Made by a program: the position numbers and the translations under genes | Origin: an uncultured candidate division Zixibacteria bacterium | GTDB taxonomy: Bacteria > Zixibacteria > MSB-5A5 > GN15 > FEB-12 | DNA: 64,000 bases | Assembly (NCBI GenBank): GCA_963806185.1 | Contig: CAWDXE010000005.1 | Coordinates: 64,001 to 128,000 of the forward strand | Direction of reading: 5' to 3' | Notes under the pieces: model-generated | What the model was told of the DNA's origin: nothing | Database searches by the model: none | Seen by the model: the letters and a program-made list of their open reading frames with translations, nothing else | Shown here: in pieces, positions 44,780 through 60,672 of the stretch | How the letters are laid out: each line of letters begins with the position of its first letter | How positions within the stretch are numbered: the first letter of the stretch is position 1

Positions 44780-45290
44780 GGAGCGTGAGGTCAGACGCCG
44801 CGAGGGCGCAGACCAGGACCTCACGCAACGTGTGAATGGCGTCGGGCTTCGACTTCGCTCAAGTCGACGGTAAGATCATCGAGGAGGAGGCGCGCGGTCG
44901 AGCATGTGGTGGACGAATGCAGATTTGAGGTTGCTTCGTCCCCTTCGGCTCCGCTCAGGGTCCTCGCAATGAGGATAATACAGAACAGACGCTCTCGCAC
45001 CCACCCTCACCCCAGCCCAAAGGGAGAGGGTGAAGAGAAGAGCGTCAGGTCACACGCCGCGAGAGCGCAGCGCAGGGCCTGACGGAACGGGTGAATGGCG
45101 GGATAAGGGCCCCATGGATTCCGGACCGTTGGTCCGGAATGACAATAGTGGCTACGCTTCTGAGATCAGCGAATTGGGAGATCATTTTGCGAGATTAGAA
45201 GGGCAAACCCCTTGTTAAATGGAAAATGGGGTTTGCCCTACGCCTGCTGAGATGCTGAAGCCGCTAAGAGGCGACTTCAGCATGACGAGT
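44780..45290. repeat. Cluster of mixed REP-like palindromic repeats
   Basis: 44913-44973 matches 466-526 with 1 mismatch; 45110-45145 is identical to 342-377; GTCAGGTCACACGCCGCGAG units as near 674. Confidence 0.88.
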
Positions 45291-54100: not shown

Positions 54101-55018
54101 TTAGATTAATTCAAAGACGCGGGCCAGCCGTCCGCCGGCAGTGTCCAGTTTTTGCAGAGCGGTTGACCGGTCGCAATTCAGTTTGTACATCACCATCGCC
54201 AGTTTGAGCGATCCCCCGGCCCGTTCCATCAAGGCATCAACCTGATCGGCCGGCACGCTTAATTCGTCGATGAGAATTCGTCGCGCCCGCGCCGCCAGTT
54301 TGTCGGATTTTACCTGCAGATCGACCATGAGATTGCCCCAGGTCTTGCCGAGCAGAATCATGGCCGTTGTTGAGATCATATTCAGGGCCAATTTCTGAGC
54401 GGTACCGGATTTCATTCGGGTCGAGCCGGTGACCACTTCGGGGCCGACAGGCAGTTCAATGAGGATGTCGACGTCGAGAGGTTCGGCCGGGGCATTGCAG
54501 ATGATGAAGGCGGTGGGGCACCCGAGTGAACGAGCGTACTGCACACCGGAGACGGTATAGGGAGTACGGGTGGAGGCGGCGATACCAATCACCATGTCTT
54601 TGGAGGACAAGGCCTGTTGCTTCAGGTCGGCAATTGCGGCGTCGCGCCGGTCCTCTACCCCTTCCTGCGAGAGGGTCAGGGTGGCATAGCCGCCGGAGAT
54701 CACGCCGATAATTTGTTTCGGGTCGGTACCGTAGGTGGGCGGGCATTCGGCGGCGTCGAGGACCCCCAGCCGACCGGAGGTGCCGGCGCCAATGTAGAAG
54801 ACGCGCCCGTTGTTGCGCAGGGTCTGAGCGAAGAGTTCGGCGGCCAGGGCGATTTCGGGGAGGGCTTGTTCGACGACCAGCGGTACAATTTTATCTTCAT
54901 CGTTGATTTTGCGAGCAATCTCAAGCGGGGGAAGGCGGTCGATGTCGGCGGTATGCGGGTTGGCCTGTTCGGTGGCCAGTTTGCGGAGTTGTGAAATGAG
55001 GTCGTGGTAGGTTGACAT
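54101..55018 (-). CDS. murQ: N-acetylmuramic acid 6-phosphate etherase
   Basis: GAGTSGRLGVLDAAECPPTYG, GPEVVTGSTRMKSGTAQK, NLMVD. Confidence 0.97.
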   Translation of the reverse strand: MSTYHDLISQLRKLATEQANPHTADIDRLPPLEIARKINDEDKIVPLVVEQALPEIALAAELFAQTLRNNGRVFYIGAGTSGRLGVLDAAECPPTYGTDPKQIIGVISGGYATLTLSQEGVEDRRDAAIADLKQQALSSKDMVIGIAASTRTPYTVSGVQYARSLGCPTAFIICNAPAEPLDVDILIELPVGPEVVTGSTRMKSGTAQKLALNMISTTAMILLGKTWGNLMVDLQVKSDKLAARARRILIDELSVPADQVDALMERAGGSLKLAMVMYKLNCDRSTALQKLDTAGGRLARVFELI

Positions 55019-55102
55019 GGGCGCAAGGTATTTCACGCCGGGATGTCAGGCAAACAAAAACGCGCCCGAGGGCGCGCTGGTAAAACAAGTCGATTTCGAC
55101 GA

Positions 55103-55906
55103 TTACGGCTGAGCGACGACGTGAACCGAGTCACGGGCGAGCACGCGGACAGCGCCAAGGTGGCCGGATACTTTGGTCTTGGCGATATCGTCGGCCAATT
55201 GCGAAGGCAGCGGCACCGGCAAGGCAGTGCGGCTGAGCAGAGAGTCCGGCGCGCCAGTGAGAGCGTAGACATAGACGTAATACCAGCCGGTATCCGGGAG
55301 AACGCCACCGGTCGGATAGAACGCGTCTCGTTGTACGGTCGCCGCGGTGGCACCGTTGGTGGCATACTGACTAAAGCCGTGGCCGGTATATCGGTTCGCC
55401 CGTTGGACTGCAGACACGACGTAGGCCTCGGCGTAAAGTGCACCGGACCAATCGAGAATAACATCCTCGGCGCCGTTCACGGTCCTGTTCGGCGGAGTGA
55501 TGTTCGTGAGCGTGTACGTCCCCGGCATGACGACGATCTCCGAATCGGCGAGAATGTCGGCATCGGCGAAGACAAACTGGAAGTTGCCTGCGCCGTAGCG
55601 ACTGGCGACGGTGAACATCCGGCCATAGACGGAATCGCTGGTGAAAGGCGTGGGAATGTACGCCAGGGTATCGAGGCCGAGTTTGGCCTTGGCGGTTTTC
55701 AGGACGACGTTGTCCTTGGCGATGGTGGTCAGGACGATGGTGGTATCCCGGTTGGGATCAATAACCGTAACGCCTTTCAGCTTGTAACGGCCGGTGATTG
55801 AACCGCCGCCGTCATCCTTATTCGGGTAGGAATTGCACCCGGCAAAGAGGGCAATGATGGCCGCGGCCAGAAAAATGAAGATATTTTGAGTATGCTTGCA
55901 GTTCAT
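55103..55906 (-). CDS. Hypothetical lipoprotein
   Basis: Lipobox FAGC; beta-rich body. Confidence 0.75.
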   Translation of the reverse strand: MNCKHTQNIFIFLAAAIIALFAGCNSYPNKDDGGGSITGRYKLKGVTVIDPNRDTTIVLTTIAKDNVVLKTAKAKLGLDTLAYIPTPFTSDSVYGRMFTVASRYGAGNFQFVFADADILADSEIVVMPGTYTLTNITPPNRTVNGAEDVILDWSGALYAEAYVVSAVQRANRYTGHGFSQYATNGATAATVQRDAFYPTGGVLPDTGWYYVYVYALTGAPDSLLSRTALPVPLPSQLADDIAKTKVSGHLGAVRVLARDSVHVVAQP

Positions 55907-56186
55907 TGAAATTCGTCGCCTTACCTTGAGATATCGGCAACTATTATACAAAATTCACCGCTAGTTCGATGACCGGGTGAATTGGTGGAACGGCTTGCGG
56001 CATGGGCGATTGGCTGGCGGGAGCCGGTAGGACGGCAGCGGTTGGGTGGGGGGGCGCGGAGAACTAATTCGGTCTATGCTTAGATTCTTGTTGTGTAGTT
56101 CAGCAGTTAGCGATAGACTGGCCGGTGTCCGATCAACCGCCGGAGGCGGTTGACACCCCGACGACAAGAATTTGGTATAATACATG

Positions 56187-56283
56187 TAGTTTGGCGGCCA
56201 GATAGTTGTAGCCATATGACTTCTGCGCCGCTTTTGAGCCCCGTACCGACTCCCTCCCCCCCGGTGCGGGGTCTCTTTTTTTT
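56187..56283 (+). ncRNA. Candidate ~95-nt two-hairpin sRNA, copy 1
   Basis: Extended -10 TGGTATAAT at 56173-56181; long 5' hairpin; terminator hairpin with a C-rich loop and a T run. Confidence 0.65.
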
Positions 56284-56320
56284 CCTGCCGGGGCAGGCCG
56301 GGAGGCCTGCCGCCCACAAG

Positions 56321-57595
56321 TCATTTGATCAGGAGCATTTTGCGGCAATCGGCATAGCCGCCGGCTGAGAGTCGGTAGAAATATATGCCGCTCGGGGAAG
56401 TGCGGCCGGCGTTATCGGTCCCGTCCCATGCGACGACATATTTGCCGGCGGATCGAGCATCGTCAACCAGAGTGCGGACACTCTGGCCGAGGAGATTGAA
56501 TATCTCCAGAGTGACGCTCGATCGCTCTGGAATATCGAATTCGATCGTCGTGGACGGGTTGAACGGGTTCGGATAGTTCTGTCCGAGCCGAAAGTGATCG
56601 GGTAAGGAGTGATCGTTGTCGTTTACGCTGGTGGGGTTCAGATCGGCATACCAAAGACCATCGGAGCGTGCGGAATAGAGACGCCCGCCGAGGACGGCAA
56701 GGTCAAAGGGGAAGGGGCCGGGAACGGAGTCGATGACTTCCCAACCGTTACCGGTTGAGGTGTAGTAATACGCTCCATAGATGACAAAGAAGATAGAGGC
56801 GTAGACGCGATCCTGATCGGCGGCGACCGAACCGTTGGCGATCAGGTGCGGAGTGACCTCATCGCGCTCCCAGGTCGCACCGGAATCGTGACTGATGTAG
56901 AGCCCGTTGCCGGCGGCGCCATACACGAGGCCATTCCGGCTCGTCATATCCAGCATGCCGGCTCCGCGAGGATCGAAGGCCGAGAAAGGGAATTCGGTCC
57001 AACCGGTCGAATTCGGGGCATTCCGAAAGATCGAACTGTTGAAGCCTGCTCCGGATATCAGGTAGTTGTCGTGGTTATAGACCGACAGAATGTTGGAAGC
57101 CGTGTTATCGGGCATGCCATCTCTGAAACTATGCCAGACAGAGCTTCCGCCGAGGTCCATGACAGATATGCCGGCGCCGAAGGTGCCAACATAAAGGCTG
57201 TCGCCACGGTTGGTCAAATCACCTATGTCATTCGAGCCAAGGCCGGTCAGACCGGTATTGCAGGGACCCCAGGAAAGGCCGTTATCGTCCGACTCAAACA
57301 CTCCCTTGGTGTACGTGCCGGCGAAGAGGCGGTCACCTACCTTGATGATGCCGGATAGCAGGTTTACCTCGGGATCAAGGGCGGCTAGCGTATCCCAATT
57401 ATTCTCTTGTCGGTCAAAGCGATAGAGCAGACCGCCGGAGGCGGAATAGAGGGTGTCGTGGTACGTGTAAAGATGGGTAGTTTCGCCGGTCGGAACCTCG
57501 GTAACCTGATGCCAGGTCAGGGCTGCACGACTGCGGGTAGCCAGAACCGTGACCAGGCCGAGCGAAATGATTAAGAGAAGGGTTGTCTTTTTCAT
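56321..57595 (-). CDS. Secreted beta-propeller protein with a FlgD-Ig/T9SS-type C-terminal domain
   Basis: Signal peptide; Asp-box repeats SDDNGLSW and SHDSGATW; LGQNYPNPFNPSTTI..NLLGQ..WDG..SGIYFY..KMLLIK. Confidence 0.9.
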   Translation of the reverse strand: MKKTTLLLIISLGLVTVLATRSRAALTWHQVTEVPTGETTHLYTYHDTLYSASGGLLYRFDRQENNWDTLAALDPEVNLLSGIIKVGDRLFAGTYTKGVFESDDNGLSWGPCNTGLTGLGSNDIGDLTNRGDSLYVGTFGAGISVMDLGGSSVWHSFRDGMPDNTASNILSVYNHDNYLISGAGFNSSIFRNAPNSTGWTEFPFSAFDPRGAGMLDMTSRNGLVYGAAGNGLYISHDSGATWERDEVTPHLIANGSVAADQDRVYASIFFVIYGAYYYTSTGNGWEVIDSVPGPFPFDLAVLGGRLYSARSDGLWYADLNPTSVNDNDHSLPDHFRLGQNYPNPFNPSTTIEFDIPERSSVTLEIFNLLGQSVRTLVDDARSAGKYVVAWDGTDNAGRTSPSGIYFYRLSAGGYADCRKMLLIK

Positions 57596-57603
57596 AGAGG
57601 AGT

Positions 57604-57662
57604 AAACGGATCAATGTTAGATATGTTCCACGAGATACGTAGTTTGGCGGAAAGATGTTCCT
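57604..57662 (-). promoter_or_regulatory. Tandem ECF-sigma-type promoters
   Basis: TGGAAC-N16-CGTTT ending 8 nt before the ATG, and AGGAAC-N17-CGTAT just upstream. Confidence 0.55.
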
Positions 57663-57775
57663 GTGCGCGGCAGGTTTCATATTTGGCAGGAGCGCAAGGC
57701 TGCGGCCCTACAGCCTATCCCCTGCCGGGGCAGGCCGGGAGGCCTGCCACCCACATTGATTTGGTATAATATACG

Positions 57776-57870
57776 TAAGTTGGGCGGCCAGATAGTTGTA
57801 GCCATATGACTTCTGCGCCGCTTTTGAGCCCCGTACCGACTCCCTCCCCCCCGGTGCGGGGTCTCTTTTT
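57776..57870 (+). ncRNA. Candidate ~95-nt two-hairpin sRNA, copy 2
   Basis: 57783-57870 is identical to 56193-56280; has its own TGGTATAAT at 57762-57770. Confidence 0.65.
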
Positions 57871-57940
57871 CTATTGGAGATCAGGGTCCGGGACGGCGGA
57901 TTTCGGATTAGACCGGAGCACAAAGCTCCTGCCCTACGAC

Positions 57941-59002
57941 CTAGCGGCCACGCGTCGTCGAGTCGCCTGGGTCAGCATACGGCGGGGTGGATGTGATGCC
58001 GAATCTCTCCAGCAGTTTATGCGACGGTCGGTTGACGCGCGCCCGGTAGACGTTGGGTTTGTCGGTCGCGGTCAATCTCCCCCGGGTGATGGCGCGCAGC
58101 CGCTGGAACTGTGCCGAGTCAGCTACTTCGGCCAGGATTTCGTAGGTCGTTGTGTCCTTGACCTGCCCGGCTTGCTGGCTGCGGGCGATCGCACCCCACT
58201 CCTCCATCGTGTGCGCCTCTGCCGGGTGGAAGTCGTACTCGCCTTTGTAGCGTACGTACCACTGGTTGTCCGCGGAGAAGTTCTCCAGCCGCTGGGTGCA
58301 CGGCTTTTGCTCCAGTTCCCGCATGCGCGCAAGGTCCAGTTCTGCCTGGGTGGCTTTGCGCGTGCGCGCCCAGCCGCCGCTGGGCAGCCGGTGGTACCCT
58401 TCGCGCTCGTAGGCCGCCGCTAGCGATTCGGCCGAGTCGGCAGCACGCTGAGCCTGCTGGGCGGCCCGGATGCTGTCAGACGTCAAGTTTAAGATGGAAT
58501 CGCCCGCCGGCGGCTGCGCCGAAAGTCGCGCCGCCAACTCATCGCGCGCCACTATGCGTATGTCGTAAGCCAGCGACCGAAAGGCACCGGCCTCCGGCAC
58601 AAACGAGTGGATGTTGCAGTCGTCGCGGTCGCCAAAATTGAAGCAGTAGGTCAACCCGCACGTGTCGCCCGGCGGGAGAATGACCTGCAGCTCGTGGGTA
58701 TAGGTCTCGCGCGCATCGAACGTCTCCTGCCAAGTCGCCTCCCCGACGAACTGCAACCCGCCCCACGGCTCAAAGCGCACCGTGAACGACGGAACCTTCG
58801 TATACTTGTTGCGCGTCAAGGTCAGCACCACCGGTACCGGCTGACCCGCCGGCACCAACTCTGCCACGGTGAACTTGTAATCCACCTGGAAGAGCCTTCT
58901 CGGCGGACTGGACTGCACGGACCCGCAAATCAGCAGAAGTACGATAGAAAACATGACATTCAAGAAGATCAATCGTTTCGACGAAGAGTGGGGCGTCGCC
59001 AT
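57941..59002 (-). CDS. Hypothetical exported protein
   Basis: About 350-aa ORF with a signal-like hydrophobic stretch; start uncertain. Confidence 0.65.
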   Translation of the reverse strand: MATPHSSSKRLIFLNVMFSIVLLLICGSVQSSPPRRLFQVDYKFTVAELVPAGQPVPVVLTLTRNKYTKVPSFTVRFEPWGGLQFVGEATWQETFDARETYTHELQVILPPGDTCGLTYCFNFGDRDDCNIHSFVPEAGAFRSLAYDIRIVARDELAARLSAQPPAGDSILNLTSDSIRAAQQAQRAADSAESLAAAYEREGYHRLPSGGWARTRKATQAELDLARMRELEQKPCTQRLENFSADNQWYVRYKGEYDFHPAEAHTMEEWGAIARSQQAGQVKDTTTYEILAEVADSAQFQRLRAITRGRLTATDKPNVYRARVNRPSHKLLERFGITSTPPYADPGDSTTRGR

Positions 59003-59272
59003 AGGACGCCAACTTGTGTTTCGCAGCGAGACTCCAATCATAAACACTTTCTCAACAGCTATGTGCAATCTGTGCGCGGCAGGTCTCCTGACCTGCCCGT
59101 TCCCTGTCTGAAACATAGCTGACATTGTCTACGGAAGCAAGTGATGAGCTCGCGGATGGGCCGGATTTGCGGCCCACTTGAATCCCAAGGGAGGGCTAGA
59201 AGGCCGGGCACCTACATAAGATAGGCAGGAGCGCAGGGCTCCGGCCCTACGCTCCGCCCAGAAAACGAGAGG

Positions 59273-60672
59273 CTAGAATTTGGCCCAGCGCGGGACGCGC
59301 GGGAACGGGAGTACGTCGCGAATATTCCCCATACCAGTGATGTACATGATGGCGCGTTCGAAACCGAGGCCGAACCCGGAATGCGGCACCGTGCCGTAGC
59401 GGCGACTATCCAGATACCACCAGTAGGCAGAGAGATTGGTGATCCCCTTTTTCGTCATGCGATTTTCGAGAACGTCGAGCCGTTCTTCGCGCTGTGATCC
59501 GCCGATGATCTCGCCGATCTTGGGCACGAGTACGTCCATAGCCCGAACGGTCTTGCCGTCGTCGTTGAGCCGCATGTAGAACGCTTTGATCTCTTCGGGG
59601 TAGTCGTAGACGATGACCGGCTTCTTGAAGGCTTTTTCGGTGAGAAATCGTTCGTGCTCCGACTGCATATCAACTCCCCACTTGACCGGGATATTCGAAC
59701 TTCTCCCCTGACTTCTCGAGAATCTTTATCGCATCCGTATAAGAGAGGCGCTCGAATTTTGCGCCGGCGACACCCTCGAGTGTAGCACGGACGGACTTGT
59801 CGACCCATTCGCCGAAGAAGTCCATTTCGTCTTTGCATTCGGTCAGGGCGAAAGTGAAGATGTTCTTGAGGAAGTCCTCGGCCAAATCCATGTTGTCATC
59901 GTTTTCGGCCCAGGCCATTTCCGGCTCAACCATCCAGAATTCGGAGGCATGGCGGCTGGTGTTGGAGTTTTCGGCGCGGAAGGTGGGGCCAAACGTGTAG
60001 ATGTCACCCAGCGCGGTGGCCAGCAGCTCTCCCTCGAGCTGGCCGGAGACGGTGAGAAAGGCCTCGGCTTCAAAGAAGTCCTGTTCCCAGTCCGGGTGGC
60101 CCTCTTTGAGCGGCAGGTTGGTCAACGGAAGCGTGGTGACGCGGAACATGTCGCCGGCGCCTTCGGCATCGGAGGCCGAGATGATCGGCGTGTGGACGTA
60201 GAAGAAACCGCGTTCCTGATAGTAGCGGTGAACGGCGTACGACAATTTGGAGCGTATCCGATTCACGGCGCCGAAGGTGTTGGTGCGGGGTCGAAGATGG
60301 GCGATCTCGCGCAGGAATTCCATGGTGTGGCGTTTTTTTTGCAGCGGATAGCTGGCGTCGGCGACGCCGACCAGGTCGATCGTGGCGACGGCGATTTCGT
60401 ATTTCTGGCCCTGCCCCTGGGACGGAATCAGCTTACCGATGAGGCGAACTAGAGGCACCGGTGAGGATTTCGTTGAGGACGGGGAAATTCTCCGGATTGG
60501 CGACGACGCCCTGAATGTTCTTCATGCAGGAACCGTCGTTGACCTCTATGAAGGCGATCCCCTTCGAGATGCGGACGGTCCGCACCCAGCCGAGGATAAT
60601 AACGTCAGTGTCGACCGGCACGCGGTCGTGTACGAGAATGGCGGCGATCTTGGTTCGTTGCTTGTAGTTCAT
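59273..60672 (-). pseudogene. asnS: Asparagine--tRNA ligase split by two apparent +1 frameshifts (probably assembly errors)
   Basis: [66 protein letters not shown]. Breaks near 60451 and 59689. Confidence 0.93.

Follow-up and report, generated by a model that had tools for sequence, protein, structure and literature searches.

The 64,000-nt stretch of Zixibacteria DNA considered here (the window, to which all positions refer unless a contig is named) carries on its + strand, at 56188-56283 (copy a) and 57777-57870 (copy b), two almost identical copies of a short element. On balance, we favour the view that a conserved and structured gene for a non-coding RNA is present here in two sibling copies, and that it is probably transcribed in its own right and is likely to act in trans, through the C-rich loop of its terminator hairpin, on sites resembling the Shine–Dalgarno (SD) sequence. 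The original prediction, made from the letters of the window, had offered two explanations for the pair, either sibling small RNAs (sRNAs) of an undescribed family or a self-transcribed mobile unit. The comparative data support the former: the element is conserved in 90 of the 108 genomes of the same family, both of its stems covary, it comes with a promoter-like element and a terminator of its own, it is convergent to the downstream gene, and its C-rich loop, which contains the anti-SD core, is invariant.

Structure and conservation of the predicted RNA

A repeat scan of the window bore out the reported 88-nt identity between 56193-56280 and 57783-57870, and placed it within a direct repeat of 93 nt (56188-56280 and 57778-57870) with a single mismatch, at base 5. 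A promoter-like sequence does stand before each copy, as had been proposed: TTTGGTATAATA precedes both and contains the extended -10 element TGgTATAAT (56173-56181 for copy a and 57762-57770 for copy b, both on the + strand), and the 25 nt around TTTGGTATAATA are 84% identical between the copies. A consensus promoter scan requires a -35 sequence and did not list the TGgTATAAT of copy a. With the start taken from the -10 element and the end from the U run, copy a would give an sRNA of ~94 nt; it is matched by the covariance model described below at 56187-56280 (73.8 bits). Copy b is delimited by the repeat and by the corresponding match at 57777-57870 (74.3 bits). The genome to which the window belongs (3.65 Mb in 8 contigs, 82% complete) has two copies of the RNA, both in the window.

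The fold drawn in the original prediction, with a 5' hairpin and a terminator bearing a C-rich loop, equals the minimum-free-energy fold. The 40-nt 5' hairpin reads GGCGGCCAGA.AGUUGUA[GCCA]UAUGACUUCUG.GCCGCU, and next come the terminator, with a 13-bp stem and the 13-nt loop ACUCCCUCCCCCC, and a U run. In copy a, the predicted 5' hairpin (56193-56232, + strand) comprises a GC-rich basal stem, GGCGGC/GCCGCU, inner stems and the GCCA loop; the terminator hairpin occupies 56236-56275 (+ strand), with its loop, inside which lies CCUCC, at 56249-56261, and a run of eight T residues follows the stem at 56276-56283 (+ strand). The equivalent parts of copy b, also on the + strand, are the hairpin at 57783-57822, the terminator at 57826-57865, its loop at 57839-57851 and a run of five T residues at 57866-57870. 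A frame break in asnS (see below) warns that homopolymers, such as the C tract in the loop and the T tracts, may be one base too long or too short in this assembly. The folding energy is -45.1 kcal/mol, as compared with -25.2 ± 3.1 kcal/mol for 200 shuffled sequences (z = -6.5), and none of the 200 shuffles was as stable.

A search for further copies and for covariation, which the original prediction had advised, succeeded on both counts: copies were found in relatives, and both stems covary. BLASTN detected the terminator hairpin alone, in nine of 36 genomes of the same family and in none of 24 genomes from three sister families, while a regular-expression search yielded 15 copies in 10 genomes, several of them in tandem. 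A covariance model was built on those 15 copies and applied with a cut-off of E <= 0.01. Within the family of the window, represented by metagenome-assembled genomes (MAGs), it gave the matches in 90 of 108 genomes mentioned above, with carriers among 62 of the 73 high-quality genomes and in 41 of the 47 genera. Carrier genomes have one to four matches, 21 of the 90 have two or more, and tandem arrays occur in five relatives (G014, G023, G024, G063 and G064). An order-level search returned 81 of 98 genomes for the family of the window (f1), 0 of 5 for f2, 2 of 14 (both weak) for f3 and 0 of 33 for f4, and in a sample of the phylum the matches were in 45 of 55 genomes of f1, in one of 10 of the sister family f3 and in none of 85 from 17 other families. 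The weak f3 matches (G056 C162:3602-3703, 33.6 bits; G050 C55:15856-15937, 28.8 bits) suggest that diverged homologues may exist beyond the main family. Among the pattern matches listed, all full-length model matches of at least 45 bits are in Zixibacteria records, and those in GC-rich Actinobacteria and others are hairpin-only or sub-threshold by the covariance model.

In an alignment of 44 sequences fitted to the covariance model, 93.9% of the cells of the terminator helix are paired and 8 of its 12 pairs are changed on both sides. This alignment mis-registers the 5' hairpin (60.5% paired there), which was assessed instead on a MAFFT alignment, made without structure fitting, of the 34 sequences of the largest subfamily. 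There, 97.6% of the cells are paired, 7 of the 8 basal pairs are changed on both sides, and the covariation score is 0.359 as against 0.154 in shuffles, none of 500 shuffles reaching 0.359; controls with slid partners gave 31-45% pairing and covariation scores of at most 0.077. On folding, all 15 seed sequences form the 5' hairpin with its GC-rich basal stem, and the median z of the 5' domain is -2.6 over 106 sequences. The interior of the 5' hairpin differs between the window copies and the 34-sequence subfamily. Within the latter, the apical loop CGAGCAC and the 3' internal bulge GACAACAG are nearly invariant, and may form a second functional site.

That no open reading frame (ORF) is conserved between the two copies had been noted before, and this extends to the family at large: in 52 of its 106 members the loop is crossed by no ATG frame, and in the remainder such frames are spread over all three registers. 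The proposal that the family is undescribed fared equally well in the Rfam scan that had been suggested as a check. Rfam 15 (4227 models) was scanned at gathering scores over the whole window and, in a 2.3-kb search, at a permissive E <= 10 over the element. No family reached its gathering score over the RNA element, and at E <= 10 neither LhrC, RsaE nor 6C, all presumed to be included in Rfam 15, gave a match to it. The matches that touch the element at E <= 10 (RF01719, ClpQY_promoter and two short viral or Pseudomonas models) are all far under their thresholds. RF01719 (Pseudomon-1/ErsA) scores 24.7 and 22.2 bits (E = 0.048 and 0.2) where a gathering score of 50 is required; the match is carried by the terminator only, with high posterior probability there, and leaves the 5' part unaligned. 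This likeness between terminators is probably convergent. The sole gathering-score match in the window, to the 20-nt model HIV-1_SL4 at 44984-45003 on the - strand (32.2 bits versus a threshold of 31; E = 0.0056), can almost certainly be put down to chance, the model being tiny.

Promoter-like elements and the C-rich loop

The arrangement of sequence elements around the RNA is that of a free-standing gene: TGgTATAAT stands before both copies, each ends in a stem and T run, and the flanking genes are divergent and convergent. Neighbourhoods were compared by clustering and annotating the ORFs around 89 loci of relatives and in the window. In 43 loci, a convergent asnS lies to the right, separated from the RNA gene by a median of 102 nt, and the gene on the left is divergent, so that the RNA gene is neither a leader nor a 3' untranslated region. 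Two locus types, A and B, are distinguished by the left neighbour. In type A, it is a gene for an extracytoplasmic function (ECF) sigma factor (34 loci, median gap 167 nt), with Sigma70_r2 and r4_2 domains, whose product is an ECF-superfamily protein nearest to RpoE/SigW-type models; a zf-HC2 anti-sigma gene (33 loci) comes next, and then an MMPL transporter gene (24 loci). In type B, to which the window locus belongs, a lipoprotein-like gene of 260-280 aa (38 loci) is followed by a SIS-domain, MurQ-like gene (31 loci).

Promoters of ECF sigma factors typically have AAC in the -35 and GTT or CGT in the -10 element. The motif [GT]GAAAC/GGAAC-N15-18-GTT occurs within 80 nt upstream of 59 of the 106 copies, as compared with 1.1 in shuffles and 1.35 in random windows of the same loci (maximum in either control, 7). 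With the -10 loosened to GT[TA], the count rises to 71 of 106, with the spacer fixed at 17-18 nt. The typical promoter of the relatives, GGAAAC-N17-GTT, is found in both locus types and, together with the divergent sigma/zf-HC2 operon in 34 loci, suggests that in most relatives the RNA is under ECF sigma control. The window copies carry TGgTATAAT and lack the ECF-type motif, and they are therefore more likely to be read by a housekeeping sigma factor. Upstream of copy a, the sequence is TTGACAC-N16-TGGTAT: the -35-like TTGACAC (56150-56156, + strand), 16 nt 5' of TGGTAT, is one base off the TTGAAAC of the relatives, and may be a remnant of an ECF-type -35. Copy b shares the -10 region only and has no counterpart of TTGACAC.

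The genome of the window has an ortholog of the linked sigma factor on contig C6, accompanied by its anti-sigma gene (pair at C6:32279-33128); it is 56-60% identical to the linked sigma factors, the next best sigma factor being ~33% identical. There are 14 Sigma70_r2 matches in this genome, and a different ECF sigma gene lies at C5:128474-128668, ~470 nt past the end of the window. Four relatives (G101, G100, G116 and G034) have second loci (L210, L211, L215 and L221, respectively), in which an extra sRNA copy is found at an unrelated site that lacks both asnS and the sigma operon; the upstream elements of these copies are sigma-70-like as opposed to ECF-like, and some second-locus paralogues have TTGACT-N17-TAnnnT-like promoters.

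The heptamer CCUCCCC lies in the terminal loop of 106 of 106 model matches, an invariance that is partly circular, as the covariance model rewards CCUCCCC. The 16S rRNA of the same genome ends in GGAUCACCUCCUUUCU and thus carries the anti-SD core, CCUCC, that is present in the loop. In this genome, and with starts taken from crude gene calls (longest ORF), GGAGG shows an enrichment of ~9-fold between -15 and -6 relative to predicted starts; for 7-mers with complementarity to the loop, the enrichment is ~7-fold, between -15 and -11. The use of SD sequences is nonetheless sparse: GGAGG precedes 186 of 3125 first starts (~6%) and the 4-mer core 852 of 3125 (~27%), which resembles other bacteria of the Fibrobacteres–Chlorobi–Bacteroidetes (FCB) group. 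Since SD-led genes are a minority, a C-rich loop could address them. Perfect complements to the loop of at least 7 nt are found at 108 candidate start sites in this genome, 24 of which extend over 8-9 nt; no theme stands out among them, and none falls in a conserved neighbour gene. The exact sequence GGGGAGGG occurs 86 times, 11 of these before an ORF start. An RNAduplex comparison of the loop with 14,134 candidate start regions gave long interrupted duplexes as its top matches, which we distrust. CsrA is present in the genome. Hfq was not found either there or in five relatives that are 95-100% complete, which fits a chaperone-independent G–C pairing of the loop of the kind described for 6C in the available extracts of PMC6486639.

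Judging from its promoter-like and terminator sequences, the RNA would be transcribed from its own promoter and ended at its own terminator. By analogy with LhrC, RsaE/RoxS and 6C, the unpaired C-rich terminator loop would then pair with G-rich, SD-like sites in mRNAs, and such pairing would block the translation of the target mRNAs.

Besides the circularity and the crude gene calls mentioned above, a number of results weigh against this reading. Enrichment of loop-complementary 7-mers at the SD position is expected of any SD-like word. When GGGGAGGG-N3-12-RTG was counted against a reversed control in five relatives, there was no excess (26/34, 13/11, 20/21, 28/20 and 18/25). Neither do the 5' ends of the neighbouring genes contain loop-complementary sites, as at most two of the 24-38 loci per gene have one, and the two closest of these sites overlap the RNA gene itself on the opposite strand; conserved neighbour genes were rejected as targets on this count. 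A loop in a strong terminator would also fit a purely structural terminator, yet a loop invariant over 10-15 nt is unusual there. As regards regulation, the ECF link consists only of promoter shape and adjacency, and the upstream alignment and pattern search agree in finding no ECF-type motif before either window copy. The region upstream of the linked sigma gene likewise lacks the motif (it is present in 6 of 34, mostly inside coding sequence), and autoregulation of that gene through it was not seen. Moreover, the motif is not over-represented across the genome of the window, its 38 matches being about the number expected by chance; 16 of them are before ORFs, none of which is a sigma gene. 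One of these matches, TGGAAC-N-GTTGTTT, is upstream of a thioredoxin-like gene on contig C7 (~383985, + strand), a single case within a chance-level count.

A more far-reaching proposal, which we put forward tentatively and would not be surprised to see fail, is that the RNA is a multi-copy, Hfq-independent mimic of the anti-SD sequence, and the first riboregulator family of the Zixibacteria. Within a stress module made up of an ECF sigma factor and a zinc-finger anti-sigma factor, it would serve as the RNA arm, selectively silencing the SD-led minority of genes under stress; in the genome of the window, it would have been duplicated, lost its coupling to the sigma operon and come under extended -10 promoters of the housekeeping type.

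The duplicated locus and alternative explanations

To the left of copy a, the divergent gene at 55103-55951 (- strand) belongs to the lipoprotein-like family found on that side in 38 loci; a homology search with it returned hypothetical proteins only, with no Pfam or NCBIfam family. The second left neighbour is the SIS-domain (MurQ-like) gene at 54101-55036 (- strand). Between the copies, at 56321-57595 (- strand), lies a gene for a secreted protein of 424 aa with a type IX secretion C-terminal sorting domain (TIGR04183, 36.7 bits versus a cut-off of 23), which is lineage-specific at the locus (ORF cluster size 2). Convergent to copy b is a 394-aa ORF at 57941-59125 (- strand), which has no family match and is found at the locus only in this genome. 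The convergent asnS, encoding asparaginyl-tRNA synthetase (59273-60458, - strand), is 1.4 kb off because these two genes, unique to this genome at the locus, intervene; each of the two is preceded by a copy of the RNA. The way in which the copies bracket the secreted-protein gene, to which the original prediction had drawn attention, is a local, lineage-specific rearrangement. Most likely, the duplication would have arisen locally as the two lineage-specific genes came between the RNA gene and asnS.

The flanks of the two copies, which had been said to differ, are otherwise distinct, except that a palindromic 35-nt repeat, D3, adjoins both. It lies directly after copy a (56284-56318) and directly before the promoter of copy b (57721-57755), the two instances being 97% identical. 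A second palindrome family, D2, is found in the window at 57685-57711, 57911-57937 and 59224-59250, and has four copies in the genome. Both D2 and D3 are short, GC-rich palindromes similar to repetitive extragenic palindromic (REP) sequences, and they crowd the intergenic spaces of the RNA locus. The asnS gene is divided between two overlapping frames, at 59670-60458 and 59273-59668, with the break near 59669-59690, next to short C and G runs; the downstream frame encodes conserved synthetase sequence, one base out of register, and the break reflects either an indel introduced by sequencing or a genuine frameshift.

It is conceivable, if unlikely, that the RNA is real and that it binds or titrates a protein, such as a C-rich-RNA-binding protein of the KH type or a component of the ECF sigma/anti-sigma pair, with the loop as the recognition site. 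A loop invariant over 10-15 nt in 106 of 106 members goes beyond the strict need of SD pairing, no conserved target emerged from the neighbouring genes or from the GGGGAGGG-start-codon counts, and within subfamilies the loop of the first hairpin, CGAGCAC, and the ACAAC bulge likewise keep their sequence, all of which would suit a protein-binding role. Such a role is harder to reconcile with the type B locus, which encodes no candidate partner, and with the identity of the CCUCC core to the anti-SD sequence. CsrA, which is present in the genome, is known to bind GGA motifs and not C runs. Furthermore, the characterized C-rich-loop sRNAs compared here act by pairing, according to the sections available of their source papers (PMC4132741, PMC6486639).

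The remaining explanations concern the element as DNA or as a coding sequence. That it is mere punctuation in cis, a terminator or insulator between convergent units that might, for instance, shield asnS from antisense read-through, with the 5' hairpin as an accessory, seems to us improbable: the element is indeed convergent to asnS at ~100 nt, and the terminator is its strongest and best conserved part, but the upstream gene is divergent, which leaves only the element's own transcript to terminate, and a promoter-like element at fixed spacing precedes 59-71 of the 106 copies. The T run is on the + strand only, the A-rich tail of the - strand being contributed by the sequence before the hairpin, so the terminator is not bidirectional for the benefit of asnS; both window copies are far from asnS, and tandem arrays with a promoter per copy (three of three in G014) would be senseless for an insulator. 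It is rather more doubtful still that the second copy is an assembly artefact, a collapsed or mis-joined repeat of a single sRNA gene. The genome is a MAG, and the nearby asnS has a one-base frame break typical of indel error; against this, there is a one-base difference between the copies within the body, identity across the promoter regions is 84%, the flanking sequences are wholly unlike and carry distinct ORFs, and multi-copy arrays are present in at least five independent assemblies. The different flanks, the differing promoter regions and the tandem arrays in independent assemblies argue that the duplication is real. The second explanation offered by the original prediction, a self-transcribed mobile or repeat element akin to a miniature inverted-repeat transposable element or a REP sequence, would account for a direct repeat that brackets a gene and for the D3 palindrome beside each copy. 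We reject it as highly improbable, as the genome holds only two copies, both at one locus that is syntenic across 41 genera, the repeat scan revealed neither terminal inverted repeats nor target duplications flanking the unit, there is no plasmid or phage match, and D3 is a separate low-copy palindrome with five copies in the genome. The possibility that small proteins are encoded, by one frame of 72 aa (56150-56368) and one of 205 aa (57806-58423), both starting in the repeat, can hardly be entertained: the two frames begin with the same residues, from the shared DNA, but diverge right where the repeat stops, the frame counts over the 106 members given above speak against it, and the substitutions in the stems are compensatory.

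Comparison with known sRNAs

Returning to the reading that we favour, a trans-acting sRNA with a C-rich anti-SD-like loop, the best reading is that its functionally closest counterparts are LhrC1-5, RsaE and 6C. LhrC1-5 of Listeria monocytogenes are described, in the available sections of PMC4132741, as multicopy sRNAs that are induced by envelope stress via LisRK, and whose UCCC motif, in loop A and in the terminator loop, binds the lapB mRNA without a requirement for Hfq; the terminator loop has a share in binding the ribosome-binding region of the target. As far as those sections go, they resemble the Zixibacteria RNA in being multicopy siblings, partly in tandem, of ~100 nt, with two hairpins and a C-rich motif in the terminator loop, and in being tied to a stress-sensing regulator, which is LisRK in the one case and would be an ECF sigma factor in most relatives in the other. 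They differ in host (a Firmicute as opposed to Zixibacteria), in being driven by LisRK where most Zixibacteria members have an ECF-type promoter, and in presenting UCCC at three sites, according to the same sections, in place of one long invariant CCCUCCCC(C) loop; there is no sequence or model similarity even at E <= 10. RsaE/RoxS, RNAIII and FsrA are, from the same partial source (PMC4132741), further UCCC-motif sRNAs of Firmicutes, whose unpaired C-rich motifs pair with the SD sequence and block initiation; their sequences and regulators are unrelated to those described here, and none of them was matched in Rfam.

The 6C sRNA of Actinobacteria binds mRNA directly through its C-rich loops, and G–C pairing suffices without Hfq or ProQ, as stated in the extracts of PMC6486639. 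It shares with the Zixibacteria RNA the C-rich loop and a setting without Hfq, which was likewise not found in the Zixibacteria genomes searched, and it differs in having several C-rich loops within a different architecture and in giving no Rfam match here; neither an ECF link nor multicopy arrays are reported for it in those extracts (PMC6486639). ErsA (Pseudomon-1, RF01719) of Pseudomonas is the only lead from Rfam: its terminator loop reads CCCUCCCC, and it is driven, according to the portion available of PMC13613067, by the envelope-stress ECF sigma factor sigma-22. The match is nonetheless sub-threshold (24.7/22.2 bits versus 50), and the 5' part does not align. The enterobacterial MicA, RybB and MicL are sigma-E-dependent and Hfq-dependent sRNAs with 5' seed regions and are not known to have a C-rich loop. 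If the promoter assignment holds for the relatives, they would share with the Zixibacteria RNA the position of sRNA arm of an ECF envelope-stress regulon, whereas the window copies have no ECF-type promoter.

A full-text search for 'Zixibacteria' with 'small RNA', together with the Rfam scan, revealed no regulatory RNA described for the Zixibacteria. Comparative data alone now delineate a well-supported sRNA gene family in 41 genera of a single uncultured family, including its structure, its promoter, the synteny of its locus and its variation in copy number, and the covariance model can be used to annotate the RNA gene in MAGs. If the anti-SD reading is true, the C-rich-loop sRNA design would have been invented independently once more, outside the Firmicutes and Actinobacteria, in an FCB-group lineage with sparse SD use in whose searched genomes Hfq was not found, and would here be tied to an ECF sigma/anti-sigma module. 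The Zixibacteria RNA has the hallmark of the C-rich, anti-SD-like class, a conserved unpaired C-rich motif (ACUCCCUCCCCCC) complementary to the SD sequence of its own genome, as defined by the CCUCC of its 16S rRNA. Overall, we conclude that the RNA family is undescribed, yet its design as a regulator is conventional and familiar.

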